Positions 268 to 21,408 of a DNA stretch of 53,582 bases are shown one piece after another. A model generated the notes under the pieces. That model did no database searches and was not told the DNA's origin. It saw only the letters and a program-made list of their open reading frames with translations. Each line of letters starts with the position of its first letter. Within the stretch, counting starts at the first letter, position 1. Where the stretch lies: positions 1 through 53,582 of the IMG/VR virus record IMGVR_UViG_3300036770_002010; one strand, given 5' to 3'. This stretch comes from a virus. Lineage: Duplodnaviria > Caudoviricetes. Position numbers and translations under genes: made by a program.

Positions 268-918
268 TTATCGTATTTCTGAGTTTCTGTCATCGCTGTC
301 ATCATCTTTTCTAGCTAGTGGTAATTGTAATAGTGTAGCCATTATCTGCATTATTCCAGTAACTTCATTTTGTCCAATACCACTTTCTATTTCATAAATA
401 TCATTACAATCTTCTTGTGATTGTATGTCTTGCCAATCTAATATATTCTCCCATATACCATCAACATAAATACACTTTAAAGTTTTACTTCTCCATAAGT
501 ATAAGTATTGATTAATAATTGAGTATCTTAATGCTTCTCCTTTTATTGGGTCTAGTGAATCTGATTTTAGTTGATACTGTTCTATCATTCCTAATAATCT
601 TCCATCTAATAACTTAACTTGCATAGCATCTCTATATCTACCTATTAATGGTCTAGGTATTTTATATTTACTTCTTAATACTTTACAACTATTATCAGGA
701 ATACAAGAACAATCTTCAGCTTTAACTAATTCTAATTCTATACAGAATCTATGACTAGACCAACTTGATATAAATGATTTACCTTTAATATTATTACCTA
801 ATACTGTAGCTCTAGCTTGTACAACTAATGACCATAAATAACTATCAGTATATTTACTGTCGTCTGTTATTTCTTTAATAGTTACACGAATAGTAGATAA
901 TAATTCAGCTATTTTCAT
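268..918 (-). CDS. Putative neck/ring (tail tubular-like) virion protein
   Basis: 216-aa ORF in the virion arm; size, Cys content and position resemble crAss-like ring proteins (synteny inference). Confidence 0.45.
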   Translation of the reverse strand: MKIAELLSTIRVTIKEITDDSKYTDSYLWSLVVQARATVLGNNIKGKSFISSWSSHRFCIELELVKAEDCSCIPDNSCKVLRSKYKIPRPLIGRYRDAMQVKLLDGRLLGMIEQYQLKSDSLDPIKGEALRYSIINQYLYLWRSKTLKCIYVDGIWENILDWQDIQSQEDCNDIYEIESGIGQNEVTGIMQIMATLLQLPLARKDDDSDDRNSEIR

Positions 919-4586: not shown

Positions 4587-4990
4587 TATGCTACTGTAAG
4601 TGTTATAGAATTAGCGTCAAACCTAACAGTATCTCCAGCACCTATAGTTACAGGACTTGATGATACTGTACCATAGTAAATCATACTACCACTTGTATTA
4701 GCAGTCCATATTGCAAAACCTACTATAGTACAAGCTCCAGCATTAGTAGTTAACTCAATTAAATTATTTCTTACAACATCATTTGTAGCTGTAAAACTTG
4801 TAGCTGTAGTTAATGATTTTCTTCCAGCACTTCCAGTTAATGTTTGATATACTGAAGTACCTCCAGTACCATCTTCTGCAGGAAGTGTTGAATACACATC
4901 TAAAAATACTGTAGTTAATTGAGTAGGTGCTGCGCCTCCAGCTAACCATGTAGCTATTAAACTTTCTGTATAGTTTGATAAATTTGCCAT
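4586..4990 (-). CDS. Small virion structural (fibre/decoration-like) protein
   Basis: LSNYTE...FAIW.A.T.G.MIYYG...V.IGAGDTV.F pattern common in small phage structural proteins. Confidence 0.6.
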   Translation of the reverse strand: MANLSNYTESLIATWLAGGAAPTQLTTVFLDVYSTLPAEDGTGGTSVYQTLTGSAGRKSLTTATSFTATNDVVRNNLIELTTNAGACTIVGFAIWTANTSGSMIYYGTVSSSPVTIGAGDTVRFDANSITLTVA

Positions 4991-4995
4991 TTTGT

Positions 4996-5277
4996 TTATG
5001 TTTTAGTTATTGCAGCTATTGTATTTACTGTTGTTAACAATGCTGATTTAAGTTTAACAATATTGTTATCAGGATTCTTAGTTATAACACTTGTAAATTG
5101 TCCACAAGTTAATTCTATACCTAATTCATCTCCTTCATTACAAGATTCCATTGGTTCTATACATGCAGTTGGCATCTTAGACAAAGCTAATGCTAGTAAA
5201 TCATTATTATCAATTATACAATCAATACCATAACGATATCTATCTGCCAAACTTTTAACAAAACTCGCAATCTCCAT
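4996..5277 (-). CDS. Hypothetical virion-module protein
   Basis: 93-aa ORF tightly coupled to neighbours. Confidence 0.5.
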   Translation of the reverse strand: MEIASFVKSLADRYRYGIDCIIDNNDLLALALSKMPTACIEPMESCNEGDELGIELTCGQFTSVITKNPDNNIVKLKSALLTTVNTIAAITKT

Positions 5278-5662
5278 AATCCATTGAGTTATATAAAACT
5301 TTTAAATCTTCACAATCTACACATTTATCAGCAGCTGTAACTAATACAAAGTATGTAGTAGCTAACTGTTGATTATAGTTTGATGCAAGTTGTTTAGCAA
5401 CTTTGCAACCTGTTTCTTCATTCTTAAACAAACATCCTTTATCTAATGTTGTAACACTATTTAATACTCTTTTTAATACTACAGAGTGAACTCCTTCTGC
5501 TAGAGTAATAGTATAGTCATAATAACTATTTGTAATACTACCATTAACAACAGCTACAGGATTAGCATCATTAATACTAATAGTATAAACTCCTGATGCA
5601 GGATTAAATAACGTAGAAGTAATTCTTAATGCTGTATTATTACTTACTAATTCTAATTTCAT
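5255..5662 (-). CDS. Hypothetical virion-module protein with Cys-rich C-terminus
   Basis: 135-aa ORF overlapping neighbours; CVDC and CEFC motifs. Confidence 0.55.
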   Translation of the reverse strand: MKLELVSNNTALRITSTLFNPASGVYTISINDANPVAVVNGSITNSYYDYTITLAEGVHSVVLKRVLNSVTTLDKGCLFKNEETGCKVAKQLASNYNQQLATTYFVLVTAADKCVDCEDLKVLYNSMDYGDCEFC

Positions 5663-6105
5663 TTTCTTAGTATTAATCTTGTTAATCTTTCACCAACATA
5701 TCCCCATAAGTCTACACCAGTTACAGTTTCTATGTTCTCAAAGATACTCTTTATTTCAGTTAATGCAACAACTCCAGCTACCATATACGTTAACGGTATA
5801 GGCAACGAGAATACTCTTATAAATAATTCTGATATAAGTATGCCTAACATATATAGTACATACTTCTTTACACTCTGACGATAGCCTGATGATTCAATAG
5901 CTTCACCTCTATGTTTTGCAGCCATTCTTCCAGTATATAAATCTACTAGAACTATAACTAATGTAAAAGATAGAAATGTAGCTACTGACATTATAAAGCT
6001 ACTTATCCAACTAAACATAGTAAATATTACTCCTATCCAGTAGTCCTCTGTTACAAATTTCTCTACGTTGTAACGTACAATTTCTTTTGATGTTTGTTCT
6101 TTCAT
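5659..6105 (-). CDS. Holin (phage holin 4-like family)
   Basis: Several hydrophobic segments; D..TG, I.S.G and E..SI.EN motifs; basic C-terminus. Confidence 0.8.
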   Translation of the reverse strand: MKEQTSKEIVRYNVEKFVTEDYWIGVIFTMFSWISSFIMSVATFLSFTLVIVLVDLYTGRMAAKHRGEAIESSGYRQSVKKYVLYMLGILISELFIRVFSLPIPLTYMVAGVVALTEIKSIFENIETVTGVDLWGYVGERLTRLILRK

Positions 6106-7190
6106 GTTGATGTTAGTTTTCCGCCTTCATATCTTCTTGAGAATTTACGATGAATCATTGTAGCCATCTTTAAAAATCTAGTTGGTCCATACACCATACT
6201 AATTTGGTCTTTAATGTTCATCGTCATCATAGTCAGCTTCCGCTTTACATCGTTGTGTAGATTACTACGTTCTTGTTTTATTGCTTGGTATAATTGATAA
6301 CCATTAGCTTCACCCATTAGTCCTCTTTCATACCAATGTTTTTCTTCTACATATTTAGCTAAGTAATGCCATATAACTTCAGGTTCTGAAGGAATAAGAT
6401 ATTCACCACTAGCATCTTTTAATGGAGTATAATAGTGTACTAGAATAGTACCTGTATCAAAATTAAATGTTCCTATGTTTCCAGTTATTTGTACAGAAGC
6501 ATCACATTCTCTACATAGATAATCTATTGTTTGATTAGTAAGTATATTAACTTTTTGATTAGGAACAAATGTATTATTAGTATAAGTAGTTTGTATTCCT
6601 AATGGATTATCATACATTAATCCTGTACTTGATGTTGCAGTATCTTGAGGAACTACAGTAGATTGGAAAGAAACGATAGTGAGTACTGGAGGAGGTAAAG
6701 CATTATAATAATCATTAGCAATAGTGAGAGTATTAGTAGCACTATTAATAGTATAATACTCTGGACTATCAGGCGATAGTTGTCCACTAAAATATACAAA
6801 AGTCGTACTACCAGCTTGTAACACATCTGTTTTATTCCATATAACACTTTGAGTAGGATTTGTATATTCCTGAACATAAGGCATTAGTGTTGTATCTTTC
6901 GTAAACTCTAATAAGTTATTTCCTGTAAAGTATGTACTTCTTGAATAGTCATACATAACTTGATTTAAATCATTAGCTACTTCTATTCCTATTATTTTAT
7001 CTTTAGTTGCTGGTAATTGTGCTTTATAGTTTTTTATTTCTACTATATCAAAGTCTTTAACTTTCTGTAGTGTTGGATAGTTAAGTAAATTCCATGCTTG
7101 TAATGCCCATGATAATAATTGGTCATCATCAGATTCTGCGTATCTAACAACACTACTCATATAATTAAAAACTGATGATAATGGTTTCAT
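6102..7190 (-). CDS. Putative neck/ring (tail tubular-like) protein
   Basis: 362-aa ORF; F..G.ILVHYY.P.D..G..LIP motif reminiscent of crAss-like ring proteins. Confidence 0.5.
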   Translation of the reverse strand: MKPLSSVFNYMSSVVRYAESDDDQLLSWALQAWNLLNYPTLQKVKDFDIVEIKNYKAQLPATKDKIIGIEVANDLNQVMYDYSRSTYFTGNNLLEFTKDTTLMPYVQEYTNPTQSVIWNKTDVLQAGSTTFVYFSGQLSPDSPEYYTINSATNTLTIANDYYNALPPPVLTIVSFQSTVVPQDTATSSTGLMYDNPLGIQTTYTNNTFVPNQKVNILTNQTIDYLCRECDASVQITGNIGTFNFDTGTILVHYYTPLKDASGEYLIPSEPEVIWHYLAKYVEEKHWYERGLMGEANGYQLYQAIKQERSNLHNDVKRKLTMMTMNIKDQISMVYGPTRFLKMATMIHRKFSRRYEGGKLTST

Positions 7191-7280: not shown

Positions 7281-7904
7281 TTATTGTTTTATCAATGTTA
7301 TATTTCTATTTAATGTAGTATAAGCATTTTCAGTAAGTTTAAATAACTCATATTGTTTATCACCAATAACAACGAATAGTTGATTCTCTAGTGTAGCTAA
7401 TATTACATTATCTTTTACTGTATATTCCTTATCTTTATTAGGAGTGAATGTTAATGTGTTATTATCTATTGTAACAACTCCTGGAGTAATTTTTTCATCT
7501 ATAGCTATAATCCAATTTCCTATAAGTTTATTTCCATACTTAGCATTAGTTTCAGTCCATATTGTTTTACCAGTAACTTTCTCAAACATTTGTGCATACA
7601 GAGCCATAGCATTATCTGAAGTATTCTTTAGTATAATAGGAATAGCTGCTTGTGATAACTTGTTTGATTCTTGTTCAATTTGTGTCATGAATGTATTTGC
7701 AGTAACAGTACTATCTCCAATAACATCTTTAGTTACATTAGATGATTCATCAGAATAGTTTGTAATTCTTGTAACAAAATAAGTTCCTTTATTAGGATTC
7801 TTTGTTACATAAATAGTGTCTTTCACAACTTGCTTTTGTGCATTAGTAATAATTGATAGCAATAAGAATGCTGCTATAATTAAACCTCTTAATAGTAATA
7901 ACAT
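7281..7904 (-). CDS. Signal-peptide protein, paralog of 8006..8602
   Basis: Hydrophobic N-terminus ending TNA|Q; KDTIYV, IGDS, GNW motifs align with the neighbour. Confidence 0.75.
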   Translation of the reverse strand: MLLLLRGLIIAAFLLLSIITNAQKQVVKDTIYVTKNPNKGTYFVTRITNYSDESSNVTKDVIGDSTVTANTFMTQIEQESNKLSQAAIPIILKNTSDNAMALYAQMFEKVTGKTIWTETNAKYGNKLIGNWIIAIDEKITPGVVTIDNNTLTFTPNKDKEYTVKDNVILATLENQLFVVIGDKQYELFKLTENAYTTLNRNITLIKQ

Positions 7905-7924
7905 AATTTTAGTTTTTTTAGTTA

Positions 7925-7955
7925 CAAATATAATACAATTCTTTTAGTAATACAA
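7925..7955 (-). promoter_or_regulatory. Bacteroidota sigma-A-type promoter for 7281..7904
   Basis: Minus strand TTG-N20-TATATTTG upstream of the ORF. Confidence 0.55.
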
Positions 7956-8005
7956 TAAAACACCTTCGTAGCCAAGTTTTAAAATGTTGTAGATAACTGC
8001 TTTCA

Positions 8006-8602
8006 TTATTCAAGTTTTATAAGCCTAACATCTCCATCCACAGTTGCAAACTTGCCATCCGCATATTTATACAAGTCGTATTTTACGGAGTTAAAATTAA
8101 AGGATATTTGATTGGTGAATGTAGATAATAGCAAGTTGGTTGAAATAGTGTACACTTTGCCATTATCAGGATTAAAAATTAAACGCTTGTTATTGTTTAA
8201 CTGAATAACTCCATCAATGATTTCACCGTTAAAATTCAATTTCCAATCTCCCAAAAACTTTGCCGTGTCTCTTTGTGCCGTGGTAAAATAAACTGGCTTA
8301 CCGCTTATTTGCTGATGCAAATCGTTGTAATAATTAATTCTTTGTACTGTTTTGCCTTTTGTAATTAAAGGCTTTGCATGAATAGCCAAAGTGTTGCTTT
8401 GCCTTTCAGCATCGGTAACAAGGTTGTTGATTGCCGTTGCAGAATCGCCCAATATTTGCTTTGAACCTGTAACAGTGCTATCAGACAAAGTCGTTTGCTG
8501 AATGATGTAATAAATGTTGCCTTGCTTTTGGATGTACACGGTGTCTTTGACAACATCTTGCGCAAAGGAAAACAAGGGAAGGAATAAAAATAAGTATCTC
8601 AT
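8006..8602 (-). CDS. Signal-peptide protein, paralog of 7281..7904 (likely start 8602, MRYLFL)
   Basis: MRYLFLFLPLFSFA|Q; starts immediately after the upstream stop codon. Confidence 0.75.
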   Translation of the reverse strand: MRYLFLFLPLFSFAQDVVKDTVYIQKQGNIYYIIQQTTLSDSTVTGSKQILGDSATAINNLVTDAERQSNTLAIHAKPLITKGKTVQRINYYNDLHQQISGKPVYFTTAQRDTAKFLGDWKLNFNGEIIDGVIQLNNNKRLIFNPDNGKVYTISTNLLLSTFTNQISFNFNSVKYDLYKYADGKFATVDGDVRLIKLE

Positions 8603-8603
8603 T

Positions 8604-9626
8604 TTATTTATTTTCAAGGTTAATAATTCTTTGTTCAAGGGATTTGATGAGGGCTTGTTGCTCTTGTATGGCTTTGGTAAGGATAGGAATAATGGCTTGA
8701 TAATTTACAGACATTGATTCCTCAAAACTTACAACTTCTGGTAAAATTGTACCAATATCTTGTGCAATAAAACCAAGTTGTTTACTACCATTACTTTTAT
8801 ATATGTATTCAACAGGCTGCAATTTTAAAACATCATTTAATCCATATTTTAAATTAAAAATATCATCTTTTAAATTATAATCAGAACGTGTTATATATGC
8901 CGCTGCACTAACATTTCCATTAACGTATAAAGAATCTTTTACTTGTAAAAGATAATTTCCATAAGTTGAAGTATTGCCAACCCATAATTGACCACCTGCT
9001 CTAATTGATAATCTTTGAGTAAAAGCTAATCTTCCATCGGTAACTTCAAAAAACAAAAAGTTACCACTGTTAACTTGAAAATCCCAATCTTTATCTGGTA
9101 TATCTGTTTCCTGCATAATAAAACTAGGATTGCCAGCATTTATAAATATACCTCCGTTTGTTAATATAGACCCAGTAGAGTGTAATGATTGAGATGGACT
9201 TGCTGTGCCAATACCAAGATAACTTATTGCATTATTCCAATGTAAATTTGTAGGAGTTAAAACACCACTTGTTCCATTTCCAACCATTACTTTGTTTGCG
9301 TTTAAAGTCGTTGCATTTGTGCCCCCATTCGCCACAGGCAAAACACCCGTTAATCCTGATGAAATAGAACCAACGCCTGCCATACTCCAAACATTTGTTG
9401 CACGGTTGTAGTTGTAAAATCTATGATTAACCGTATCAAGAATAATATACGCACTTGTATCACTTGAAGGTGTAATTATACCTGTGTCGGCAAGTACGCC
9501 ACGATAAATCAGCCCATCGGCAGTTGTTTGTTCACCAAGCGTTATTTTTTGGTTGCCATTGATTGGATACTGTGCCCATGCAAGGCAAGGCAACAAGGCA
9601 AGGGCAAGGGAAAGGAGTTGTTTCAT
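8604..9626 (-). CDS. Fibre/spike protein with C-terminal S74 intramolecular chaperone and N-terminal signal peptide (likely start 9626)
   Basis: SDYNLKDDI..LQPVEY..GFIAQ..P..V..VNY..ILTKAIQEQQ S74 motifs; LPVANGGT and GIGT.SP fibre motifs; MKQLLSLALALLPCLAWA|Q. Confidence 0.85.
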   Translation of the reverse strand: MKQLLSLALALLPCLAWAQYPINGNQKITLGEQTTADGLIYRGVLADTGIITPSSDTSAYIILDTVNHRFYNYNRATNVWSMAGVGSISSGLTGVLPVANGGTNATTLNANKVMVGNGTSGVLTPTNLHWNNAISYLGIGTASPSQSLHSTGSILTNGGIFINAGNPSFIMQETDIPDKDWDFQVNSGNFLFFEVTDGRLAFTQRLSIRAGGQLWVGNTSTYGNYLLQVKDSLYVNGNVSAAAYITRSDYNLKDDIFNLKYGLNDVLKLQPVEYIYKSNGSKQLGFIAQDIGTILPEVVSFEESMSVNYQAIIPILTKAIQEQQALIKSLEQRIINLENK

Positions 9627-9643
9627 GTTTATGTTTTTAGTTT

Positions 9644-12600
9644 TTAATTTCCGCTTCTCTGCATAATTATCCAATTTGTACCATCACTAACAAGCGTTAC
9701 TGCTTTATTATTTGTTGGATTTAATATCGCTGTACCTGCACTGCCAGTAGGAGGCGATGTAAAAGGAATCACATTTGAAGAAAATGAAATTATTTGTCCT
9801 GTACCTGTTTGGCGAATATGTAGCTCTTTGCCAGGATACGTTGATGCATTGGGAAGGGTTAATGTTGTTAAAACATTTGTATTTACATCTAGCCATGTAG
9901 TATTTACACTTACCGTAAAATTTGAAGAAGTAGTATTTGTATACGTTCTTTCCAACCACGGAGTATTAATACGCCCACCAAATGTACCTACAGAATTAAC
10001 GTTTAATTCCCCATTTACGTCAAGCGTTTTTGTTGGTGAAGCTGTGCCAATACCTACTTTGTTTTCCGAGGCATCCATAAAAATCATATTGACATTAGTA
10101 CCACTTGATACTCTGAAATCATATTGAGCGGATGAGCTGCCAAATACTGTTGCACCTTCAACTGTTAAACTTGAGCCAAGAGTTGCTGCGCCTGTGGCAT
10201 TGAGAGTGCCGTTTACGTCTAACTTGTAAGAAGGTACTGTTTGATTAATTCCGACATTACCTGTAAAAGGCTCTATGCGCATTTTTTCAGAATCTGTACT
10301 TCCATCTATAAATCTAAATGCTCTACGAGGTTGTTCAGAATACCCAAACCAATAAAAATCCATAGTTTCTGTTGCAGATAAAGAATTAAATACTATACCA
10401 AAATCTTCTGATGGATAATTATTGTATGGTTGTATTCTAAAATTATCTGATTCCCATGCACTATATCCTCCAATCATTCCAAAACTTCCCGTTGTTCCTA
10501 TTAACCCTCCCGTTAATGTCCCACCTGTTAATGGTAAATAACTTGTACCATCTACAGTTCCATCTGCTTTAAGGAATTGTGAAGATGTACCACCAGATTT
10601 AATAAAACTATTTGCAGTAATATTACTTGTTACGCCAAGTGTGCCATTCATATTTATATTTCCAAATTCATTTATCGTCATAGCAGTTGTAGGAACTTCT
10701 GTATTATAAGATGTTTGAAAGTTAATCCTACCTCTCCATGTTCCTATCGTTCCAACACTACCAATATTCAAATCTATATATGGACTAACATTAGCTGTTT
10801 TTAAATATCTGGTAAAATTACCAGTATATTGAGATAATGAACCAATAGATATACTGTCCAATACACTTAATTTACCTGTCAAAGTTCCCCCTGTTAATGG
10901 TAAATATGATGATAAAGAGGAACTTGTAATATAACCAGCTCCATTAGTAATTTGATTATTATTAGTAGGAATAGTTATTACTCCATTTATATTATCATAA
11001 TTTCCACTTCCAGCAGCAAAACTTAAATCTGTTCTACGAATATAACCATTTGGATTTGTACTATTATATGGAGTGTAACCTAAAGCTGTAGTTACATTTG
11101 AACTTGTAAGACTTAATGTACCACCTAGAGTAAGATTACCAGAATTAGTTACTGAACCAGTTAAAGTTAATCCACTAACTGTTCCTGTACCACCTACACT
11201 TGTTACTGTTCCAACGCTTATATTTCCTGAGCCTAATAAGCTATTTGAATTTACCGTCTTGATATTTGTTCCAGATACCAAGGTATTTTGCTTTGTATTG
11301 AATCTTGAGGTAAGATTTAATTGAGATGTATCAGCATCTCGAAAGTAAGGTGTAAGCATTGAAGCGGTGTCAAATCTTGTAACTAATAAATTAGTATCGG
11401 CAAGTAATGTAGATGAATTAATAGATAATCCATTACCTAAAGTAAATTTACCAACAGAATTAACACCTCCAGTTAAATCTATTCCAAGAATAGCTGTGGG
11501 AATTGGACTTGTATTATTTAAATAAAATAAAGAATCTGCTGTTAATCTGTGTTTAAAAACTTTATTACCACTAAATAATTGTGCTGTTGTATTTACAATT
11601 CCTGATTGAACATCAGAAGCGGATAATATTGATAATGTTCTATTTGCGCTTAAATTTCCACCTCCCTGTAATGGAGATGTGGTATTTATAGTTATTGTAC
11701 TATTAGCAGGTGTAAATCCTAAAGCATTTTGTTTGTTATTAAATGTAGTCCAATCAGTTGATGTTAATACACCTCTATTAGTAGAACTTGCATTTGGAAT
11801 ATTAAGTGTAATTACTGGAGTTGTTGTTCCAGTTGCAACTGATGAACTTACATCAGTTCCAGTAGTAGTTAATGTTAAAGCAGCTACCGATGTAACTGTT
11901 CCAGTATTTGCTGTAGCTCCTGATGCTATTCCATCTAACTTAGCTTTATCTGCTGAACTCATTACTCCAGCTAAACTTGTTGTAGCTACATTTAAAGTTG
12001 CAGTTGTTCCTGTAGAACTTGTTATAGGTACAGTTGTAGTTGTTCTACTACCTTGTGCAAGATTTGTAGGAACATTAACTTGTGCTCCAGCAGCAATACC
12101 ATCTAATTTTGTTTTATCAGCAGCTGACATACTACCAGCAACTGATGTTGTTGCAGCTTGTAATCCTATTGTTATAGCTGAACTACCATTATAACTTGTT
12201 CCTGTTAATGGTGATGATATAGTAAGTGTATTAAGATTATTACCAAGTGTAACTCCTGATATAGTTGATGCTGCAAGTTTTGATACAGCTATTGCAGCAC
12301 TTGCATTTATATCAGCATTTACAATAACTCCAGTAGTTATAGAAGTAGCATTACCTATTGATGTAACATCTCCAGTAAGATTAGCATTAGTTGTAACTGT
12401 TGCAGCATTACCAGTAGTATTTTGATTCCATATTGGAACTGTACCTGTTAATCCTGAATAAGCTACATTAGTAGCAGTTGCAGCATTACCACTAATATTA
12501 CCAATAATTGTATTACTAAATGTTTGAGTTCCAGTAAACGTTTGAGCTGCATCATTACGAGCTATACTAAAATCTGTTCCAGGAGTTGTTACTAATATTT

Positions 12601-15600
12601 GTCCTGAAACATTAGTAGCATTTGTAGTTTTAAATTTAAATATTTCATTAGAGTTAAGATAATTCAATACGTTAGTAGTATTTGTAGAATTAGTTGATGA
12701 TGTAGCATTACCAAGAAAGTTACTAGCTGTAATATTTCCAGCACTAAAATTACCACTTGCATCTCTATATACTATTGTACTTGGTGTATTACTATTTGTA
12801 GCAGTTGATGTTACAGTAAATGTTGCAGCAGTAGATTGATTTGCAGTAAATGTTTGACTACCAGTTAATCCATTTCCAGATACAGCCATTGTTAAAGTTC
12901 CATTATTTACAGTAGGAATTGTATTAGATGATGCTGATGTTACTCTACCTTTAGCATCTACTGTTACTGTTGCAGCAGTATATGTATTAGCTGTAACTCC
13001 ACTATTAGCTAAAGTACCAACAGCTGTAACATTAGTAGAACCATTAAATGATGGACTAGTATAAGTTAAATCTCCAGTAATAGCTATAGTTCTACCTGTA
13101 GCTAATGTAGTAGCTGTATTAGCATTACCATTAAGACTGGCAGTTATTGTTCCAGCACTAAAGTTTCCCGAAGCATCTCTTGAAACAATAGTATTTCCTG
13201 TATTACTATTTGTAGCTGTAGTTGCTGAATTAGATATTTTACCAGCTGTTGTTATAGTATTTAGTTTATCATTAGATATGCTTCCAGCTAACATAGTATT
13301 TGTTACTTTATTAGCACCTATAGTTGTTGTTATACTATTTGTACCACTACCAGTTACATCACCTTGTAATGTAATTATACCACCACTACCAGCTAATGCT
13401 ACAATATTATCTATAGCTATTATTGTAATGTTATCATCTAATTTATAACTTCCAGTTGCTAGTGTTACAATGCTATCATTTGTAATTGTATATTGACTTT
13501 CTGATTTTAATAATTGTCCATTTCTATATACTTGTGTAAAATATGGTAATAGTTTTTTACTACCTTGTTGCCATGTTAATACATTAGTATTTATACCAAG
13601 AAAATCTTGTCTTAATAATGTAGCTGTATCTCCAGAGTTAATTATATTATCAGCTACTTTTAATGTATCATTTGAAAATGATAATCCATTTCCTATTTTT
13701 ATATCTGTTAAATCATTAGCATTATTAGCACCTACAAGTTTATCTGGAGTTAAGTTATTAACTAAACTATCAACTCTTATTGTTCCAGCAACTTGTAACG
13801 CTTGTTCTGGTGTCATAGTAAGAATACCAACTCTATTAGTTTCACCATTAAGATACATCAAAGCAGTAGTATCTGTTTGTAATACCATATTTCTATTAGT
13901 AGATTTAATTGATACAGTACCATTATTATTCATTAATTCAAGATTAGTAGAATTAGTATTACTATTTATTTTTACTGCATCACTAATATTAGTATTAATT
14001 AATAATTTTCCTGTAACAGTAGCTGAATCAATAGTAACAACATTATTAAATGTTTTATTACCATTAATATCTATTTGATTAGAATAAGTATTTACATACT
14101 TAGATAACATATTAGCAGTATCAGATAAATTTAATTTAGTAGATAGTCTTGAATTAAGATTTAATAATGTTGTATCATTTGTTCTAAAATATGGTAATAA
14201 CATATTAGTTGTATCAGCATATTTTACACGAAGGTCTATTCTATTAGATAATGATATTGTATCTAACTTTCTAAGATAAGGATTTAACATACTAGCTGTA
14301 TCACTAATTAATAATGTAGCTGTAGTATCTCTCCATAAGTTTTCTGATAGATTGTAATATATAGATGCTTTATCTACTGGAGTTGTTATTCTAACATCAT
14401 GTAATTCATCAAACTCAAATCCATTCTGTATCTTTACAAATATAGAACCATTATTTTGTTGTTGTCTAATACATATACCTATAGTTACCATGTGTAACGG
14501 TGCTATTGGTTTAACTGATGTAAGTTGTCCTGGAGTATTAGATAAATATACAGTAAGACCTTCAGTAAAAGCATTAGTATTAATTCCACTTAATAATCCA
14601 AATGTTATAATATAACCATGACTACCATTAGGAATTGAATCTGTTTCTACAATACCAAATGTTTTAGAACTTGCTTGTTCTGTATTAGATGATGCTAATT
14701 CTACTAACTTATTATCACCAGTAGAACCTGAACTATATACAGCTTGACCTTTATACATAGTAACTCCAGACATATTCTTTACATAAGCTATTTGCTTTTG
14801 TTGAGTTTCTAATATTACAGCTGAATCTATATTAATAGAATCTCCTATAATATTAATACCAAATCCTTCTGTTAATGGTATTATATTTATTGTATCTTTA
14901 TTTGTTACTACATCTACATTAGTTTGATAATTAACATAGATAGTATCTAATTTAGTATTTATTCTATTAGACAATGATATAGTATCTGCTTCTCTTAAAT
15001 AAGGAGCTAACATATCAGTAGTATCTGAAATGTTTAGTTTTGTATTAAATCTATTTGTAAGATTTAATAAACTTGTATCCGCATCTCTAAAATAAGGAGT
15101 AAGCATATCTAAAGTATCGGATATATTAAATTTTAAATCTATTCTATTGGAAAGTGATACTGTATCTGAAGCATTTAACTTAGTATCTATTCTATTACTT
15201 AAAGTTATAGTATCTGAAGTATTTAGTTTTAAATCTATTCTGTTTGATAAAGTTATAGTATCTGATTGAGTAAATATAATACTTGTATCTACATTAATAC
15301 TATCGCCTATAATATTTATACCATAACCTTCTGTTAATGGTGTAAATGCAGCTATTGAATCTCTTATTAATAGATTAACACTATCTATCACACTATTATA
15401 TAATGTATCAATATTCATAACTTTACCTCCAGATATAGTTACTATTCCAGCAGTTGTAGCAAATGTTATATCTTGTAATTCATTTGTACTATCTCTATCA
15501 GGATATCTATTATCTAGTATTACAGTATCTATATTTACACTATCACCTATTATATTAATTGCATAACCATCAGTTAAAGAACTACCTATATTTATAGTAT

Positions 15601-16201
15601 CTTTATTTTCTATCATAGTAACTACATCTTTAAACTTAACATATATAGTATCAAGTTTAGTAGCTAATTTATTATTGATTGTTATTATATTATTCGCATT
15701 AGTTGTTATCCTATTGGATAAAATTGTTGTATCACTTATATTAAGTTTTAAATCAATTCTATTAGATAAACTAATAGTATCAGCTTTCTTCATATAAGGA
15801 GTTAACATTGTTGCAGTATCACTAATATTAAGTTTTAGTGCAAATCTGTTTATTAAGTTTAATGATGTTGTATCACTATCTCTAAAATAAGGAAGTAACA
15901 TAGCTGTAGTATCTGATATTTTCAGATATACATTTAATGTTGTAGTATCAAATTGTGGTGAAGGATATATTTGAATCCATCCATCTTTATAAAATTTTAA
16001 TGTATTTCTTACTGTATCTAAATAGAAATAAGCATTATTAACATTACTTGGTATGTAATTAGGTACTTCTAAATTACCTCTAAATATTAAACCATCACCA
16101 GTAGTTTGTACTCCTAGTTTTTGTTTATTGCTAAAAGTAGGATATTGTGCTAAAGCTACTATTGGTAATAATAGTAATGATAATAATAATATTCTTTTCA
16201 T
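9644..16201 (-). CDS. Long fibre-like protein (2185 aa) with signal peptide
   Basis: Fibre motifs (RDASGNFSAG, DKTKLDGIA, YLPLTGGTLTG, VGIGT.SP..LDVNG, LVSDGTNW); MKRILLLSLLLLPIVALA|Q. Confidence 0.85.
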   Translation of the reverse strand: MKRILLLSLLLLPIVALAQYPTFSNKQKLGVQTTGDGLIFRGNLEVPNYIPSNVNNAYFYLDTVRNTLKFYKDGWIQIYPSPQFDTTTLNVYLKISDTTAMLLPYFRDSDTTSLNLINRFALKLNISDTATMLTPYMKKADTISLSNRIDLKLNISDTTILSNRITTNANNIITINNKLATKLDTIYVKFKDVVTMIENKDTINIGSSLTDGYAINIIGDSVNIDTVILDNRYPDRDSTNELQDITFATTAGIVTISGGKVMNIDTLYNSVIDSVNLLIRDSIAAFTPLTEGYGINIIGDSINVDTSIIFTQSDTITLSNRIDLKLNTSDTITLSNRIDTKLNASDTVSLSNRIDLKFNISDTLDMLTPYFRDADTSLLNLTNRFNTKLNISDTTDMLAPYLREADTISLSNRINTKLDTIYVNYQTNVDVVTNKDTINIIPLTEGFGINIIGDSINIDSAVILETQQKQIAYVKNMSGVTMYKGQAVYSSGSTGDNKLVELASSNTEQASSKTFGIVETDSIPNGSHGYIITFGLLSGINTNAFTEGLTVYLSNTPGQLTSVKPIAPLHMVTIGICIRQQQNNGSIFVKIQNGFEFDELHDVRITTPVDKASIYYNLSENLWRDTTATLLISDTASMLNPYLRKLDTISLSNRIDLRVKYADTTNMLLPYFRTNDTTLLNLNSRLSTKLNLSDTANMLSKYVNTYSNQIDINGNKTFNNVVTIDSATVTGKLLINTNISDAVKINSNTNSTNLELMNNNGTVSIKSTNRNMVLQTDTTALMYLNGETNRVGILTMTPEQALQVAGTIRVDSLVNNLTPDKLVGANNANDLTDIKIGNGLSFSNDTLKVADNIINSGDTATLLRQDFLGINTNVLTWQQGSKKLLPYFTQVYRNGQLLKSESQYTITNDSIVTLATGSYKLDDNITIIAIDNIVALAGSGGIITLQGDVTGSGTNSITTTIGANKVTNTMLAGSISNDKLNTITTAGKISNSATTATNSNTGNTIVSRDASGNFSAGTITASLNGNANTATTLATGRTIAITGDLTYTSPSFNGSTNVTAVGTLANSGVTANTYTAATVTVDAKGRVTSASSNTIPTVNNGTLTMAVSGNGLTGSQTFTANQSTAATFTVTSTATNSNTPSTIVYRDASGNFSAGNITASNFLGNATSSTNSTNTTNVLNYLNSNEIFKFKTTNATNVSGQILVTTPGTDFSIARNDAAQTFTGTQTFSNTIIGNISGNAATATNVAYSGLTGTVPIWNQNTTGNAATVTTNANLTGDVTSIGNATSITTGVIVNADINASAAIAVSKLAASTISGVTLGNNLNTLTISSPLTGTSYNGSSAITIGLQAATTSVAGSMSAADKTKLDGIAAGAQVNVPTNLAQGSRTTTTVPITSSTGTTATLNVATTSLAGVMSSADKAKLDGIASGATANTGTVTSVAALTLTTTGTDVSSSVATGTTTPVITLNIPNASSTNRGVLTSTDWTTFNNKQNALGFTPANSTITINTTSPLQGGGNLSANRTLSILSASDVQSGIVNTTAQLFSGNKVFKHRLTADSLFYLNNTSPIPTAILGIDLTGGVNSVGKFTLGNGLSINSSTLLADTNLLVTRFDTASMLTPYFRDADTSQLNLTSRFNTKQNTLVSGTNIKTVNSNSLLGSGNISVGTVTSVGGTGTVSGLTLTGSVTNSGNLTLGGTLSLTSSNVTTALGYTPYNSTNPNGYIRRTDLSFAAGSGNYDNINGVITIPTNNNQITNGAGYITSSSLSSYLPLTGGTLTGKLSVLDSISIGSLSQYTGNFTRYLKTANVSPYIDLNIGSVGTIGTWRGRINFQTSYNTEVPTTAMTINEFGNINMNGTLGVTSNITANSFIKSGGTSSQFLKADGTVDGTSYLPLTGGTLTGGLIGTTGSFGMIGGYSAWESDNFRIQPYNNYPSEDFGIVFNSLSATETMDFYWFGYSEQPRRAFRFIDGSTDSEKMRIEPFTGNVGINQTVPSYKLDVNGTLNATGAATLGSSLTVEGATVFGSSSAQYDFRVSSGTNVNMIFMDASENKVGIGTASPTKTLDVNGELNVNSVGTFGGRINTPWLERTYTNTTSSNFTVSVNTTWLDVNTNVLTTLTLPNASTYPGKELHIRQTGTGQIISFSSNVIPFTSPPTGSAGTAILNPTNNKAVTLVSDGTNWIIMQRSGN
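14100..15930 (-). repeat. Intragenic peptide repeats (DTISLSNRIDLKLNISDT..ML.PY.R..DT..LNL..RF)
   Basis: Many degenerate copies in the N-terminal third of the 2185-aa protein; one further copy near 11290-11400. Confidence 0.85.
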
Positions 16202-16214
16202 TCTTTATTATTTT

Positions 16215-16247
16215 AAAAAAGCTGGTAGTAACTTAATACTACCAGCT
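16215..16247 (-). terminator. Intrinsic terminator after the capsid module
   Basis: Minus strand GCTGGTAGTA-loop-TACTACCAGC followed by TTTTTT. Confidence 0.8.
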
Positions 16248-16264
16248 ATCTATTTATTCATTGA

Positions 16265-17959
16265 TTACGATGCAGTTACTGTAACTTTTTTGAAAGTGGT
16301 ATAACCGTTAAATATAATTCTCATAAAATATTCACCAGCATCAGCAGTAGCTATTGGTACAGTATGTGTAAAACTTGTTGCACTAGGAGTACTCATTGTA
16401 ACAACAGGAGTTACTACTCCAGTAGTTGAAATGTAAGATACATCAGCAGCAAGTAATCCTGTAAAATTTACACCAGTAACATTTTGTGTAGTAGCAGCTC
16501 CTACAACACTATTAGTTGTATTTACACTAGTAATACTAGGTTTAAGTTCTAATACAAAAGGATTAGTTGAACTTGCAGTACCACCTTGATTATCATAAAC
16601 TTTATAACCTGGAGTTAATGAAGGCAACCATGCACCAAAAAAAGTATTTAATGCAGTAATTAATGTAGCATTACCAGGAGTAACAACAATACCAGCATCA
16701 GCTTTTGGAGTATTAAATGTAGATTCAGTAAGAATCCAAATACGAGTTTGGTGATGAATTGAATCGTCATACTTCTCATCTTTGTTATACAAATCAAGAA
16801 TGTATGCAATATAACTCTTAGTTTCATCAATGTAAGATGGAGTTTTGATTAACTCATCAGCAAATCCTGTTAGTTGGTGATTACCATATTGTGCATAAGC
16901 TCTTTCATCAAATGCAATCTTAAATAATCTACCACTACCTCCTGGTTCAATAGCTGAAGATACAGTAGTTACATTGTAACTTGTAAATCCACCAACAGTA
17001 ACATCAATAGTAGGTTTGATTGCATAGATATCATCATAAGCTACAGCTGTATCATGGTCTAAAGCTACAAGTAAAATACCATCAATATCTCCACCATTTA
17101 CAGTATCTACATTAACATTAATAATTTCAGCTAATGGATAAGCAGCAGTACCAGTAACAACTAATTTCTTTTGAATAAAATTGTGTAATGTTTGTACCAT
17201 TCCAGCAGTTGCTTTAATAGACAAAGTACCATTAGTACTATTCATTACGTTAATAGAATCACCAACTGCAATTCCTGCAATAGCAGTTCCAGTTCCAGTT
17301 CCATCTAAGTTAATACCTAATGCAATAACATGTTTCTTAGCAGCAATGTTAGCCCATTGTGGTTGAAGTGTATTCAACTTAGATTGAGCATTGATTCTAC
17401 CAATTAATTTAGCTAATACATAAGATTTCTTTTCAGCATCGTTAGAACCAACTAATGTAGTAGGAGTATCATAGCTAGTAATTAATTTGTCAATGTTATT
17501 ACCATAATCCCTATCTTTACGAACAGAACGGAATAATACATTAACAGCATACTTTTGTGTTACTGTAGCAGTTGAAGCAACTGGAGTAGATACTCCATCA
17601 ATGTAAACAGCTGAATTAGATTGTACTGGAGTTAAACTTGCAGTTACAGATTGTACTGAATGACTTGCATCAATCGTTGGAGTTTCTAAAAATGGTTTAA
17701 CTTCTCCAATATGCCATCCGTAGTTCTTACTAAAATCAGCAGATGTTGGTGTACCAGCAAGTAATTTAATTGCAGGAACTTGAGATATAGTATTTGAACC
17801 TGTAACAAAAGTGTTATCAGAAACATCTAAAATACCTAACTGACCATCTGTAAGATTGATTGCATTATCTGTAAATAATGCAGAACCATCTGTAGCCAGA
17901 GTAGTACTGTTTTTTGCCACAAGAAAATATTCTTGATACGGCTTGTGAGTTCTTTTCAT
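16265..17959 (-). CDS. Putative auxiliary capsid/structural protein with C-terminal Ig-like domain
   Basis: Third gene after the MCP as in the crAss capsid module; C-terminal PSITSV...VTGVNF IPT/TIG-like segment. Confidence 0.6.
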   Translation of the reverse strand: MKRTHKPYQEYFLVAKNSTTLATDGSALFTDNAINLTDGQLGILDVSDNTFVTGSNTISQVPAIKLLAGTPTSADFSKNYGWHIGEVKPFLETPTIDASHSVQSVTASLTPVQSNSAVYIDGVSTPVASTATVTQKYAVNVLFRSVRKDRDYGNNIDKLITSYDTPTTLVGSNDAEKKSYVLAKLIGRINAQSKLNTLQPQWANIAAKKHVIALGINLDGTGTGTAIAGIAVGDSINVMNSTNGTLSIKATAGMVQTLHNFIQKKLVVTGTAAYPLAEIINVNVDTVNGGDIDGILLVALDHDTAVAYDDIYAIKPTIDVTVGGFTSYNVTTVSSAIEPGGSGRLFKIAFDERAYAQYGNHQLTGFADELIKTPSYIDETKSYIAYILDLYNKDEKYDDSIHHQTRIWILTESTFNTPKADAGIVVTPGNATLITALNTFFGAWLPSLTPGYKVYDNQGGTASSTNPFVLELKPSITSVNTTNSVVGAATTQNVTGVNFTGLLAADVSYISTTGVVTPVVTMSTPSATSFTHTVPIATADAGEYFMRIIFNGYTTFKKVTVTAS

Positions 17960-19800: not shown

Positions 19801-21408
19801 TTACGATACATAACCTGGAACCCACTCAATACGACCTACCGCACTAGTATCCCAAATATTTAATGAACCACTCATTTCTCTGTAAATACTTAATGTTTTA
19901 CCAAACTTGTAAGCATTAGAACCATCTTTAACAATACCATTCTTAAAGTCAATAGCGTTAGCTACAGAGAAATAGTAGTCAATATTGTCTTCCATTACCA
20001 TACAAATGTTATTACCATTAGAGTTTTCAGCAGCATTTTCAGTTTGTCCAAACTCTAGGATATCAATTTGAAATGATTCTAGTGGTAAGTAAGAACCTGG
20101 TGCTTTCTCTTTGTATAATGTATCATCATCTTTAGATGGGTCATACATAATAGTTACATCAATACCCATTGGTAACTTGATACGAGTAAACTGAAATCCC
20201 CATTCTTTCTCATACTTATGTACTCCAGTAGGTTCAGCATTATCTCTTAAAGCAAATCCTGGCTCTAGTGTCTGGAATACAGATGCTTGTTGTGCAATAA
20301 GTGTTGACAAGTAACTAATAGCTCCAGTACCACCAACTAACATAGGTTTGCGATTCATAAATCCTCTCCTACGATATAGTACTTGATGTAAGAAATCATA
20401 TAAGTTATTTAGTGTAAAGTTACCTCCATGTGGCATATATTGTCCATCACGAACTAACTGTCTCCAGCCTGGTGCAGTTTTCTTTACTCTCTTAGAATCT
20501 TGGTCAGTATCAATTTGTAATCTACCAAATTCACACATCATTTCTCTATCCATCTCAGTACGCTCTAACAATCTTTCTTCAGCTTTAGTAATAAACATAC
20601 CTTTCTGAATAATCTCATTAGTGTTTTTATTCTTCAAACTAGCTTGATAGATATGTCCACGAGAGAATGCGTCACGATACTTTTTACCATCATGGTCATC
20701 ATAAGTTCCAGTATTAGATTTACCAGACTTACTAGCTGATAATTCCATACGAATAAACCTATCTGTAAAAGATACTTCGTTAGCATATTGACCTACAACA
20801 CCACGAAGTTTCATTTGACTTGAGTATTGGTCAGTACCATATTTAGTATTTTCTTCATTAGTTACACGAGTAGATACACGAGTAATTACTTGTCCAGGTT
20901 TTAACCATTCTACAGGAATCCAGCTATTAGGATTACCATCCTGAATCTTAACTTCATATCTAAATGAATGAGTTCCAAGTGGTTCTGGTCCAGATATAAT
21001 CTCCAACAATGGAGCATTATCAGATGCAGTCTTTAATACTACTGGAGCTTTCAACCAATTACGGTCTAATGCAATAGCAAAAGTAGTATTACCTTTTCCA
21101 GGATTAGCATTTTCAGATACTAACAATTCAGTAACACGAAAATCTACATCAGCATCACCAATGACAGACCAAGCATACTCATTACGACCACCAGGAATTA
21201 CACAATAATTACCTTGAGCCATAGTTAAATAGTTCCAACGCTTGTTAGTTAAACCTAAATTAGTTGAACTAGAAAACAAACGTGCAGTCATAACACCAAA
21301 GTCATAAGGTTGGTCATCTCTAAACAATGCACTATGAGATACACTATCGAAGAAGTTACCACCGAATCCTTTGTATTCTGTTACTTTAAGAGCGGTTTTT
21401 CTTTCCAT
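19801..21408 (-). CDS. Major capsid protein (crAss-like)
   Basis: 535 aa after portal and scaffold; N.Y.W, TAPGWRQL, GFQFT..LP.G.DV...DP..DD motifs. Confidence 0.85.
   Translation of the reverse strand: MERKTALKVTEYKGFGGNFFDSVSHSALFRDDQPYDFGVMTARLFSSSTNLGLTNKRWNYLTMAQGNYCVIPGGRNEYAWSVIGDADVDFRVTELLVSENANPGKGNTTFAIALDRNWLKAPVVLKTASDNAPLLEIISGPEPLGTHSFRYEVKIQDGNPNSWIPVEWLKPGQVITRVSTRVTNEENTKYGTDQYSSQMKLRGVVGQYANEVSFTDRFIRMELSASKSGKSNTGTYDDHDGKKYRDAFSRGHIYQASLKNKNTNEIIQKGMFITKAEERLLERTEMDREMMCEFGRLQIDTDQDSKRVKKTAPGWRQLVRDGQYMPHGGNFTLNNLYDFLHQVLYRRRGFMNRKPMLVGGTGAISYLSTLIAQQASVFQTLEPGFALRDNAEPTGVHKYEKEWGFQFTRIKLPMGIDVTIMYDPSKDDDTLYKEKAPGSYLPLESFQIDILEFGQTENAAENSNGNNICMVMEDNIDYYFSVANAIDFKNGIVKDGSNAYKFGKTLSIYREMSGSLNIWDTSAVGRIEWVPGYVS

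Follow-up and report, generated by a model that had tools for sequence, protein, structure and literature searches.

Predicted signal peptides in four consecutive genes of a crAss-like phage suggest export of its tail-fibre proteins

Four consecutive genes of a crAss-like phage, here called A, B, C and D, encode proteins that begin with a hydrophobic leader. Judged from their sequences, these leaders are Sec signals cut by signal peptidase I and adapted to a Bacteroidota host, a reading that is strongly supported. Two of the four proteins are tail fibres. Two lines of evidence lead to the view that all four are exported: the leaders are conserved as a class, and the module carries a glycosylation signature typical of non-cytoplasmic proteins. 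The probability of export is put at roughly 0.88.

The Phage and Its Gene Module

The window, meaning the whole stretch of 53,582 nucleotides that was analysed, comes from a metagenome and covers roughly half the genome of a crAss-like phage (Crassvirales). Markers of this order are the Pfam families Crass_capsid, CrAss_Ring_1, CrAss_Ring_2 and Gp80, together with PHROG portal and TerL. The major capsid protein shares 21–23% identity with those of gut crAss-like phages. The capsid, terminase, holin-family protein and amidase in the window make up the kit of a lytic tailed phage. The host is probably a member of the Bacteroidota.

All four genes lie on the minus strand, as do the neighbouring features named here. 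Gene A (9644..16201) encodes a giant fibre protein of 2185 aa, consisting of an 18-aa leader, an N-domain shared with B, a stalk of repeats and a conserved C-terminus. Gene B (8604..9626) encodes a short fibre of 340 aa, again with an 18-aa leader and the N-domain, and with an S74 chaperone at its end. Genes C (8006..8602; 198 aa) and D (7281..7904; 207 aa) are paralogues with leaders of 14 and 22 aa. The upstream neighbour (16265..17959) is a leaderless structural-module protein of 564 aa, and a terminator-like hairpin (16220..16247; an 11-bp stem, then a T run) separates it from A. Downstream lie tail ring protein 1 (6102..7190; Pfam CrAss_Ring_1) and a holin-family membrane protein (5659..6105; Pfam Phage_holin_4_1, 33.2 bits against a cut-off of 22.2). 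Capsid-proximal genes flank the module on one side and ring protein 1 on the other; at this place phage phi14:2 has fibre genes verified by mass spectrometry. The window also contains leaderless fibre candidates, namely a Gp80-like protein of 134 aa and a protein of 924 aa.

The likely start codons are all ATG, at 16201 (A), 9626 (B), 8602 (C) and 7904 (D). B starts 17 nt past the stop of A, and C starts 1 nt past the stop of B. The longest open reading frames of B and C open at an upstream TTG, which makes the start calls non-trivial, and it could be argued that the leaders are chance or a start-call artefact, never translated, with the true starts downstream. The TTG extensions fall within the upstream genes, and the homologues of B and C are mostly called from ATG. 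A has no in-frame start near the end of its leader, the gene callers of many samples agree on the same methionine, and hydrophobic replacements conserve the leaders at the protein level in hundreds of sequences. An artefact of this kind deserves almost no weight.

Leaders of the Signal Peptidase I Type

The leader of A (16148..16201) is MKRILLLSLLLLPIVALA, with predicted cleavage before QYP; homologues of the A type keep it with conservative changes. The leader of B (9573..9626) is MKQLLSLALALLPCLAWA, also followed by QYP. In C the leader is MRYLFLFLPLFSFA, followed by QD, and in D it is MLLLLRGLIIAAFLLLSIITNA, followed by QK. Each of the four shows a basic n-region, an uncharged h-region, small residues at positions -3 and -1 and a glutamine at +1.

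A simple n/h/c rule, applied to 64 non-overlapping open reading frames of the window, flagged seven of them. Small residues at -3 and -1 followed by Q occur only in A, B, C and D, and the other three flagged frames (30754-31380, 40098-40907 and 42351-42632) resemble membrane anchors. The initial claim of the sequence-only reading, that four consecutive genes begin with a hydrophobic leader ending A/Q, therefore holds on the minus strand, with no such leader among the other 60 frames. By simple arithmetic, the chance that four such genes among about 60 are consecutive is about 1.2e-4.

The fate of the leaders in homologues had been named beforehand among the points on which the signal-peptide claim would turn, and the class proves to be conserved across hundreds of sequences. 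Searches with the N-domain of the B type gave 1835 matches, which form 465 clusters at 50% identity. A full leader precedes this domain in 116 of 120 proteins among the matches listed and in 144 of 150 in a second set; the remainder are gene calls cut at the 5' end or misses of the script. Position -1 is A in 143 of 144 homologues and G in one, and position +1 is always Q. The leaders before the N-domain comprise at least four unrelated sequences of 16–20 aa. Not one of 2051 h- and c-positions in 145 homologous leaders is charged. Pairwise identity in the B type is 0.64 in the h-region, compared with 0.80 in mature residues 1–30.

The same pattern is seen elsewhere in the module. In the D family the junction is kept in 111 of 114 homologues, behind three unrelated types of leader. 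In IMG/VR, a hydrophobic segment directly precedes the N-domain in all 109 N-complete fibre frames, from 80 loci; one sub-type of the relatives' large fibres has S instead of Q (14 of 109). The glutamine at +1 is invariant in three alignments. Across the B-type, D-family and IMG/VR homologue sets, the N-domain was never found without a leader.

The leaders behave like signal peptides: sequence and length vary, yet the core stays free of charge, position -1 holds A or G and position +1 holds Q. The identification rests on sequence rules and on this conservation. With the invariant glutamine and the sequon signature described below, the proposal that these are Sec/signal peptidase I leaders of the Bacteroidota Q-rule type is strongly supported.

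There is no lipobox cysteine at +1 in A–D, position +1 being Q in all four, and the sole cysteine of B sits inside the leader at -5. No convincing membrane segment follows the leader; the best 19-aa hydropathy windows in the mature proteins score 0.69–1.85, and the highest of them, in A, contains Asp and Asn.

Alternatively, the hydrophobic N-terminus might stay in place as a helix, serving trimerisation, hub docking or membrane-linked assembly, with the fibres remaining in the cytoplasm. AlphaFold draws the leader as a helix, which would suit such a role. Related large fibres carry a conserved charged stretch of 40–50 aa before the hydrophobic segment, which could dock in the cytoplasm. In crAss001 gp22, the first 26 residues dock in the tail hub, whose assembly is cytoplasmic, and are buried there, according to the part of PMC10172136 available. 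That N-terminus is charged, however, not hydrophobic. A docking peptide should also be conserved in sequence, whereas here unrelated leaders of differing length precede a near-identical mature end and only the traits of a signal peptidase site are fixed: the charge-free core, an A or G at position -1 and a Q at position +1. Leaders of this kind also stand on C and D, which are small and globular, and an excess of sequons is what non-cytoplasmic proteins typically show. Retention of the helix is accordingly considered improbable.

Two Tail-Fibre Mosaics with a Common N-Domain

The sequence-only reading had also described two of the genes as fibre-like, one of them with an S74 chaperone, and this is correct. 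In B, the Peptidase_S74 intramolecular chaperone domain (8730..8885; Pfam PF13884) is found with E 2.8e-10 and 40.7 bits against a cut-off of 22; A, C and D do not match it. B matches 35 PHROG families, and among those listed almost every one is a tail-fibre or baseplate family. The C-terminal half of B aligns with the fibre tips of T4-like phages, cyanophages and others. The stretch S-D-Y-N-L-K at the start of the S74 domain is a candidate for the Ser-Lys dyad of the cleavage site. A matches a tail-fibre PHROG, and two stretches of it, residues 461-631 and residues 1277-1432, match GenBank phage tail fibres; a Pfam search at E up to 1 gave no match for A. The A-type gene follows a gene of about 566 aa in all eight close relatives whose DNA reaches that far. 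By homology, then, A and B are genuine tail-fibre mosaics.

The N-domain common to the A-type and B-type fibres is about 65 aa long (9372..9572 in B) and, in the alignments, starts with an invariant Q-Y. Two alignments give as invariant residues A18, Q19, Y20, K27, L30, G31, Q33, T34, T35, D37, G38, L39, R42, G43, D64, T65, Y73 and W80. The domain is modelled as a small beta-sheet with pLDDT 73–82, in a model whose overall pLDDT of 63.7 is too weak for a fold search. A profile search of the PDB with the N-domain gave no match, nor was the domain found in GenBank phages, where the C-terminal half of B alone matches. In bacterial genomes it occurs only on four small MAG contigs, apart from one chance match, so it is not a family of host surface proteins. 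The fibres have a conserved N-end and a variable C-end, like receptor-binding proteins. No tail partner of the N-domain was identified, and BLASTP of the crAss001 proteins THA and AUX against the 135-aa and 564-aa proteins of the window gave no match.

The Companion Proteins C and D

The paralogous proteins C and D each end in a small beta-barrel. In D, which has 114 homologues and a model of mean pLDDT 79.8, the barrel has eight strands and spans residues 122-207 (7284..7541), with pLDDT of about 90. In structure it comes closest to serralysin inhibitors of the periplasm: 1smp_I with Z 6.8, rmsd 3.3 Å and 87 aligned residues, and 6iy4_I with Z 6.3. Against the Inh/APRin inhibitors, Z is 6.8, 6.3 and 5.1 over 79–87 residues; generic or designed barrels reach 5.7–6.1. 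Foldseek gives E 0.03–0.1 to the inhibitors, which do not match D in sequence. The ESM Atlas returned only unnamed viral clusters for D, and tblastn against GenBank phages gave no match. C and D would be small proteins exported alongside the B-type fibre; one lead for them is a protective or adaptor role.

A kinship of C and D with GroEL was considered and dropped. The NCBIfam hit has E 1e-3 but only 17.6 bits against cut-offs of 397–475, a PDB profile hit at E 0.22 comes from a GDGTTT-like match, and hhalign against the GroEL of phi14:2 gives a probability of 0.36%.

Glycosylation Sequons

In Bacteroidota, the motif D-(S/T)-(A/I/L/V/M/T) is enriched in non-cytoplasmic proteins, where alone it is glycosylated, at nearly full occupancy (PMC12871550, in the part available). 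A contains 42 such sequons, compared with 13.4 ± 3.4 in shuffled sequences; none of 2000 shuffles reaches 42. The third residue is an allowed one in 42 of its 49 D[ST]x triplets, against a background of 0.46. Residues 62-911 of A (13469..16018) hold 39 of the 42 D-[ST]-[AILVMT] motifs.

Relatives show the same excess. The A-type protein of one close relative, L010, has 12 sequons against 2.3 expected, and the density is 1.90 per 100 aa in A-type homologues compared with 0.36 in other window proteins. An unrelated leader-bearing protein of 1902 aa in another relative, G002, has 23 against 9.1, and in the window C has 4 against 0.8 (p 0.007). Neither B nor D shows a significant excess, and in the variable regions of B-type fibres there is no enrichment (90 sequons, 116 expected). 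The excess is confined to the stalk repeats of the A type, C and the G002 protein, and repeats inflate such counts.

Leaderless proteins served as a comparison. Of eleven fibre or tail proteins without a leader, taken from crAss001 and phi14:2, none is enriched, their counts lying at or below expectation; in this set the phi14:2 proteins are verified by mass spectrometry and the N-terminus of crAss001 gp22 is resolved by cryo-EM. Among 45 leaderless families, only a membrane-anchored protein of 208 aa reaches p<=0.01. The stalk of A would probably be decorated by the general O-glycosylation system of the host.

Two general reasons for export were tried against these data. Glycosylation is at most partly supported, given the B-type variable parts. 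Disulfide formation was set aside: mature A has one cysteine, and mature B, C and D have none.

A Possible Route to the Virion

Textbook assembly of tailed phages is wholly cytoplasmic. To our knowledge no tailed phage builds its fibres outside the cytoplasm, and no report of one adding them there was found in the literature.

The route that we infer for A–D is as follows, its last step, joining the virion, being the most conjectural. Host Sec would carry the four proteins across the inner membrane, and signal peptidase I would cut them before the glutamine, which under the Q-rule would become pyroglutamate. A and B would fold and trimerise in the periplasm, B with its ATP-independent S74 domain. 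The general O-glycosylation system, which in Bacteroidota acts only on non-cytoplasmic proteins, would decorate the stalk of A through its 42 sequons. Particles assembled in the cytoplasm would bind this pool of fibres through the N-domain of about 65 aa only once the holin opens the inner membrane. A holin-family homologue follows the fibre and the genes of about 200 aa in 73 of 80 related loci.

Joining of the exported fibres to virions at the moment of holin opening is given slightly less than an even chance. The complete chain, with fibres exported, cut, capped with pyroglutamate, coated with host O-glycans and attached at or after holin opening, is more tentative. Similarly tentative is the idea that attachment around or after lysis is used throughout an abundant freshwater lineage and by fibre cassettes that myoviruses share. 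On the complete chain, the host would supply a glycan coat to the fibres of the virion.

Routing of the receptor-binding module through the host envelope had been proposed at the outset. This is partly supported: the leaders, and with them export, have good support; action at the cell surface is without a visible outer-membrane route. Because A–D lack a lipobox cysteine and a membrane segment, and A, B and C have no NCBIfam match, being kept in the periplasm until lysis appears likelier than display on the cell. No NCBIfam or Pfam family, among which models of T9SS sorting domains are presumably included, matched the C-ends of A, B and C. Searches of A–D against PADLOC and NCBIfam were unproductive.

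The proteins may instead be exported without ever entering the virion, as a periplasmic or released module of a receptor-binding-like fibre and small barrels. Such a module would act on the envelope or on lysis debris, for instance through occupation or destruction of receptor material, which would free progeny or block superinfection; it might also aid release. It would remove the conflict between export and cytoplasmic tail assembly, and the window does have leaderless fibre candidates. The N-domain, C and D also occur in a large myovirus-like genome that has nothing else in common with the window phage; that they move as a unit into an otherwise unrelated backbone is odd for a virion anchor. 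L010, although closely related, lacks B, C and D. The barrel of D most resembles periplasmic protease inhibitors, and Porphyromonas phages have exported Q-rule proteins (PMC10367356, in the part available).

Other observations speak for a place in the virion. The genes belong to the late structural operon and stand where phi14:2 encodes its fibres, and in the myovirus-like record the module sits inside the fibre cluster, directly after baseplate-like genes. An N-end that stays conserved while the C-end is exchanged typifies a part that docks on a conserved partner. The A-type gene is a fixed core gene, present in 8/8 relatives, and the missing outer-membrane route counts against action outside the cell. 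A life wholly apart from the virion is a real but not a favoured possibility.

Relation to Known Systems

The Q-rule of Bacteroidota reportedly goes back to an original paper of 2018. Substrates of signal peptidase I under this rule have the same basic n-region, uncharged core, small -3 and -1 residues and glutamine at +1 as A–D (PMC10653852, in the part available). They are cellular envelope proteins, whereas here the cargo is tail-fibre proteins of a late structural operon.

Fibres and spikes of the endosialidase type share the PF13884 domain with B, which scores above the Pfam cut-off. B differs from the known members in its leader and in its novel N-domain, which is without a match in the PDB or in GenBank phages. 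No S74 fibre is known to have a signal peptide, and the known members fold in the cytoplasm.

The tail fibres gp22-26 of crAss001 and g080-g086 of phi14:2 belong to the same virus order and take a comparable place in the structural module. Unlike A–D, the proteins of crAss001 (gp20-45) and phi14:2 (g067-g092), fibres included, have no leaders. In the cultured crAss-like phages examined, a fibre normally has no leader.

Filamentous Ff phages are extruded through the envelope as they assemble, with pIII anchored by a C-terminal membrane helix. Their pIII and pVIII offer a parallel to A–D, that of a receptor-binding virion protein with a cleavable signal peptide that uses host export machinery. 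However, pIII keeps its membrane helix, and A–D show no convincing further membrane segment.

T5 Llp and lambda Bor and Lom are envelope-placed accessory proteins of phages. Phages of Porphyromonas gingivalis have exported Q-rule frames of unknown role, as the available part of PMC10367356 describes them. All of these likewise use host general secretion and are placed in the envelope. They are small proteins that serve exclusion or have an unknown function; many are lipoproteins, and their genes lie outside the structural operon, whereas A–D include two fibres of up to 2185 aa, have no lipobox and lie among late structural genes.

Virion glycosylation in mycobacteriophages uses phage-encoded cytoplasmic transferases. 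With Bacteroidota O-glycosylation substrates, A shares the motif, at about three times chance density, and a predicted non-cytoplasmic location (PMC12871550, PMC8550257); the available parts of these two papers describe no phage protein as a substrate.

Implications and Occurrence

If fibres do mature in the periplasm, the assembly order of a tailed phage changes. Signal peptidase, glutaminyl cyclase and O-glycosylation would become host factors for infectivity, and particles might wear host glycans, touching host range, protease resistance and recognition by other organisms. Such phages would call for another way of producing engineered fibres. Should the proteins stay apart from the virion, they would be a new class of exported receptor-binding-like phage proteins. 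Under either reading, the leaders offer a simple handle for tests.

Megablast of the region against GenBank phages gave no match, and the Bacteroidota -7 promoter motif, TAnnTTTG, occurs 85 times against 84 expected, which is uninformative. Proteins of this exported kind are very common in environmental viromes: besides the 465 clusters, 554 stretches are present in IMG/VR.

Four leader-bearing genes

Four consecutive minus-strand genes of this crAss-like phage start on a common plan: a short basic segment, a hydrophobic core free of charged residues, a small-x-small motif and then Gln. Gene A (16201-9644) encodes 2185 aa, with the leader MKRILLLSLLLLPIVALA before QYP. Gene B (9626-8604), read from its ATG at 9626, encodes 340 aa with MKQLLSLALALLPCLAWA before QYP; C (8602-8006), likewise read from an ATG (8602), encodes 198 aa with MRYLFLFLPLFSFA before QD; and D (7904-7281) encodes 207 aa with MLLLLRGLIIAAFLLLSIITNA before QK. 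True Sec export with cleavage by signal peptidase I is the preferred reading for all four, at a probability of roughly 0.88. The ATG of B follows the stop of A by 17 nt, and that of C follows the stop of B by 1 nt; for both, the longer frames that open at TTG extend within the genes upstream. The sequence-only reading had described four consecutive genes with a hydrophobic leader ending in Ala before Gln. This is borne out by a rule-based scan of the N-termini of 64 ORFs, which returned A to D and three membrane-anchor-like N-termini lacking an Ala-Gln site. Mature A to D contain no further convincing membrane segment.

Conservation of the leaders

That the leaders are an artefact is extremely improbable. 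A search with the first 110 residues of B returned 1835 proteins (465 clusters at 50% identity), and a full leader is present in 116/120 and 144/150 of the listed B-type sequences; the exceptions are 5'-truncated gene calls or script misses. At least four unrelated leaders of 16-20 residues precede a nearly unchanged B-type mature end. The h-region is less conserved (0.64) than mature residues 1-30 (0.80). No charged residue occurs among 2051 h/c positions; at -1, 143 leaders have A and one has G, and Q is invariant at +1. Similarly, three unrelated leaders precede one QKQ start in the D family (114 matches). The A-type homologues examined (86), found on contigs of 97-114 kb, retain the leader. 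The mature N-terminal domain common to A and B (the N-domain) is encoded by 554 IMG/VR stretches, from which 80 loci were kept; a hydrophobic segment lies immediately N-terminal of it in 109/109 N-complete ORFs, and no leaderless copy was seen among the homologue sets examined. The claimed leaders are thus kept as a class, with A or G at -1, Q at +1 and a charge-free core, while the sequence itself varies. Judged from sequence, this is the pattern that selection on a signal peptide would leave, and not one expected of a docking peptide. An unprocessed N-terminal helix is an unlikely explanation.

In 31 large fibres of the 80 loci (856-1505 aa; L042, L043, L045, L060 and others), a conserved stretch of 40-50 aa, charged and amphipathic (motif …PKKERKFLKA…GNK.QG), precedes the hydrophobic segment and Ala-Gln site, which is replaced by …SYA before S in 14 of them. 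Very large autotransporter adhesins have extended signal peptides, which this stretch resembles. Alternatively, the fibre could be signal-anchored, with this stretch as its docking peptide in the cytoplasm.

The cultured crAss-like phages differ in this respect. Their fibres are leaderless, and no leader-bearing protein occurs in the structural regions examined, crAss001 gp20-45 and phi14:2 g067-g092, many of the latter detected in virions by mass spectrometry. PMC10172136 describes how the crAss001 fibre gp22 docks by its N-terminal 26 residues in a hub on the tail barrel. These residues are charged. Leader-bearing fibres such as A and B therefore depart from the norm within the order. Outside the structural module, the phi14:2 OmpA-domain protein g002 (L012 283-1278) has a leader ending …KMNA before QEY and so follows the Q-rule, the Bacteroidota preference for Gln at +1. 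In the openly accessible literature, searches turned up neither a tailed phage whose tail fibres have signal peptides nor a case of host O-glycosylation of a phage protein in Bacteroidota. The nearest precedent is the description in PMC10367356 of Porphyromonas phage ORFs that follow the Q-rule and have no assigned function.

O-glycosylation sequons

A second signature, independent of the leaders, is an excess of sequons. According to PMC12871550, Bacteroidota glycosylate Ser/Thr of D-(S/T)-(A/I/L/V/M/T) in non-cytoplasmic proteins only; occupancy is almost full, engineered motifs are also glycosylated, and non-cytoplasmic proteins are enriched phylum-wide. A has 42 sequons against 13.4 +/- 3.4 expected, a count reached by 0/2000 shuffles, although many lie in repeats, so that counts are not independent, and an invariant D-T or D-S within a strand may be structural. 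Residues 62-909 hold 39 of the 42, and the third residue is an allowed one in 42/49 D[ST]x triplets (background 0.46). A-type homologues average 1.90 sequons per 100 aa, compared with 0.36 in other window proteins; the A-type fibre of the close relative L010 (554 aa) has 12 against 2.3 expected, and C has 4 where 0.8 are expected. The corresponding region of a relative with 79% capsid identity (G002) encodes a 1902-aa protein whose leader (…VSVKG before Q) and N-end are both different; it is likewise enriched, with 23 sequons against 9.1 expected.

No enrichment was found in the controls, 11 leaderless fibre/tail proteins of crAss001 and phi14:2 (those of phi14:2 found in virions by mass spectrometry), nor in the variable parts of B-type fibres (90 against 116 expected). 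Among the 45 leaderless families in all loci fetched, p<=0.01 was reached by one membrane-anchored 208-aa protein only. In the window this protein (30754-31380, minus strand; N-terminal anchor) has 4 sequons against 0.7-0.8 (p 0.003-0.014), which fits a periplasm-facing location; it is possibly lysis-related.

Nature of the four proteins

The earlier assignment of two of the four as fibre-like, one with an S74 chaperone, holds in Pfam, PHROG and GenBank phage matches of A and B. B carries the Peptidase_S74 domain and matches 35 PHROG families, those listed being, with few exceptions, tail fibre or baseplate; over residues 137-338 it aligns to the fibre tips of numerous GenBank phages. A matches one tail-fibre PHROG, and two stretches of it match tail fibres of Vibrio, Pseudomonas, Nitrincola and Synechococcus phages. 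The shared N-domain (~65 aa) starts with an invariant Q-Y and is modelled by AlphaFold, with moderate confidence only, as a small beta-sheet after the leader helix.

C and D are paralogues (30% identity). The model of D (pLDDT 79.8) combines a three-stranded sheet and three helices with a confidently predicted barrel of eight strands at the C-terminus. The best structural matches of the barrel are periplasmic serralysin inhibitors, at Z 6.8, 6.3 and 5.1, a range where the common barrel arrangement alone may be shared. The sole significant viral match of the model in BFVD is A0A516L8Z3 (206 aa, E 3.4e-6, 16% identity), probably a distant C/D-family member from a deposited phage genome. The first half of C and D (8006-8602 and 7281-7904, minus strand) gives weak GroEL matches around GDS(T/A)xT, resembling GDGTTT; profile comparison with phage GroEL gives no support to chaperonin homology.

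Gene neighbourhood and possible fate after the probable export

Because no lipobox, membrane anchor or recognisable outer-membrane sorting domain was found in A to D, the periplasm is their likely location until lysis. The exported fibres may then join virions when the holin triggers, a tentative proposal held at slightly less than even odds. It is favoured by the position in the structural operon, by the conserved N-end and variable C-end, and by the standing of A as a core gene: a leader-bearing A-type fibre is the next gene past a ~566-aa gene in 8/8 close relatives reaching that far. A is alone at the site in L010, where B, C and D are absent; L002 has A, one B-type fibre, C1, C2 and D. 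The A-type gene of one close relative is broken into frames of 379 and 229 aa (L017 7165-8941), which could reflect a frameshift or assembly error.

A fibre-cluster position in a myovirus-like genome also favours attachment. G001 (L004/L037) is a 39-kb fragment with a CheckV completeness of 13% and gp25-like and baseplate-J-like genes, and therefore comes from a very large myovirus-like phage. It has only the N-domain (76% identity over 66 aa), D (77%) and C (49%) in common with the window. This cassette sits among leaderless collagen-like fibres, and the B-type fibre (1073 aa, lacking S74) lies in the fibre cluster. The portability of N-domain, C and D as a set points instead to a virion-independent role, as do the leaderless fibre candidates of the window and the lack of any precedent; such a role is possible, though somewhat less likely than attachment. 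The N-domain was not found in isolate bacterial genomes.

BLAST finds a C/D-family gene in 62/80 N-domain loci, and the remainder have a leader-bearing gene of 203-206 aa at the same position. A holin-family homologue lies directly downstream of the exported fibre and ~200-aa genes in 73/80 loci; the other seven end short of that point. A functional link of the holin-family protein to the release or meeting of exported fibres is possible. In the window, its gene (5659-6105, minus strand; Pfam Phage_holin_4_1) is far from the amidase (27264-27806, minus strand), and tail ring protein 1 (6102-7190, minus strand) intervenes between it and the module. In L036 (G002:C1:8000-26500, reverse strand), two ORFs that resemble lipoproteins (84 aa, …LFSMSC; 251 aa, …IMVSC) come next to the 1902-aa leader protein on its downstream side, then membrane proteins, and only then homologues of the window's 135-, 93- and 924-aa, ring and muzzle genes.

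The late module

The window is an entire IMG/VR virus record, by estimate ~49% of a genome. By Pfam and PHROG matches, its late module runs on the minus strand from ~34.8 kb to position 1, with the crAss-type markers large terminase (24962-27283), portal (22449-24983) and Crass_capsid (19801-21408), as well as a Gp80-like fibre protein (4586-4990) and tail ring protein 2 (268-918); tail ring protein 1, the holin-family gene and the amidase also belong to this module. The replication module is on the plus strand past 35.6 kb. The capsid protein has only 21-23% identity to those of gut crAss-like phages.

Hub and ring proteins of crAss001 are joined by disulfides, as described in PMC10172136. 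Leaderless tail proteins of the window are Cys-rich (1812-4586, 4996-5277, 5255-5662 and 268-918, minus strand; 18, 4, 6 and 6 Cys). Mature A, B, C and D have 1, 0, 0 and 0, and seem to lie outside any such network. Window GC is ~30%; it is 0.31-0.38 across B and the C-terminal part of A (8300-12500), compared with 0.24-0.28 across the N-terminal repeat part of A (13700-16100), a contrast that fits fibre genes of mosaic origin.
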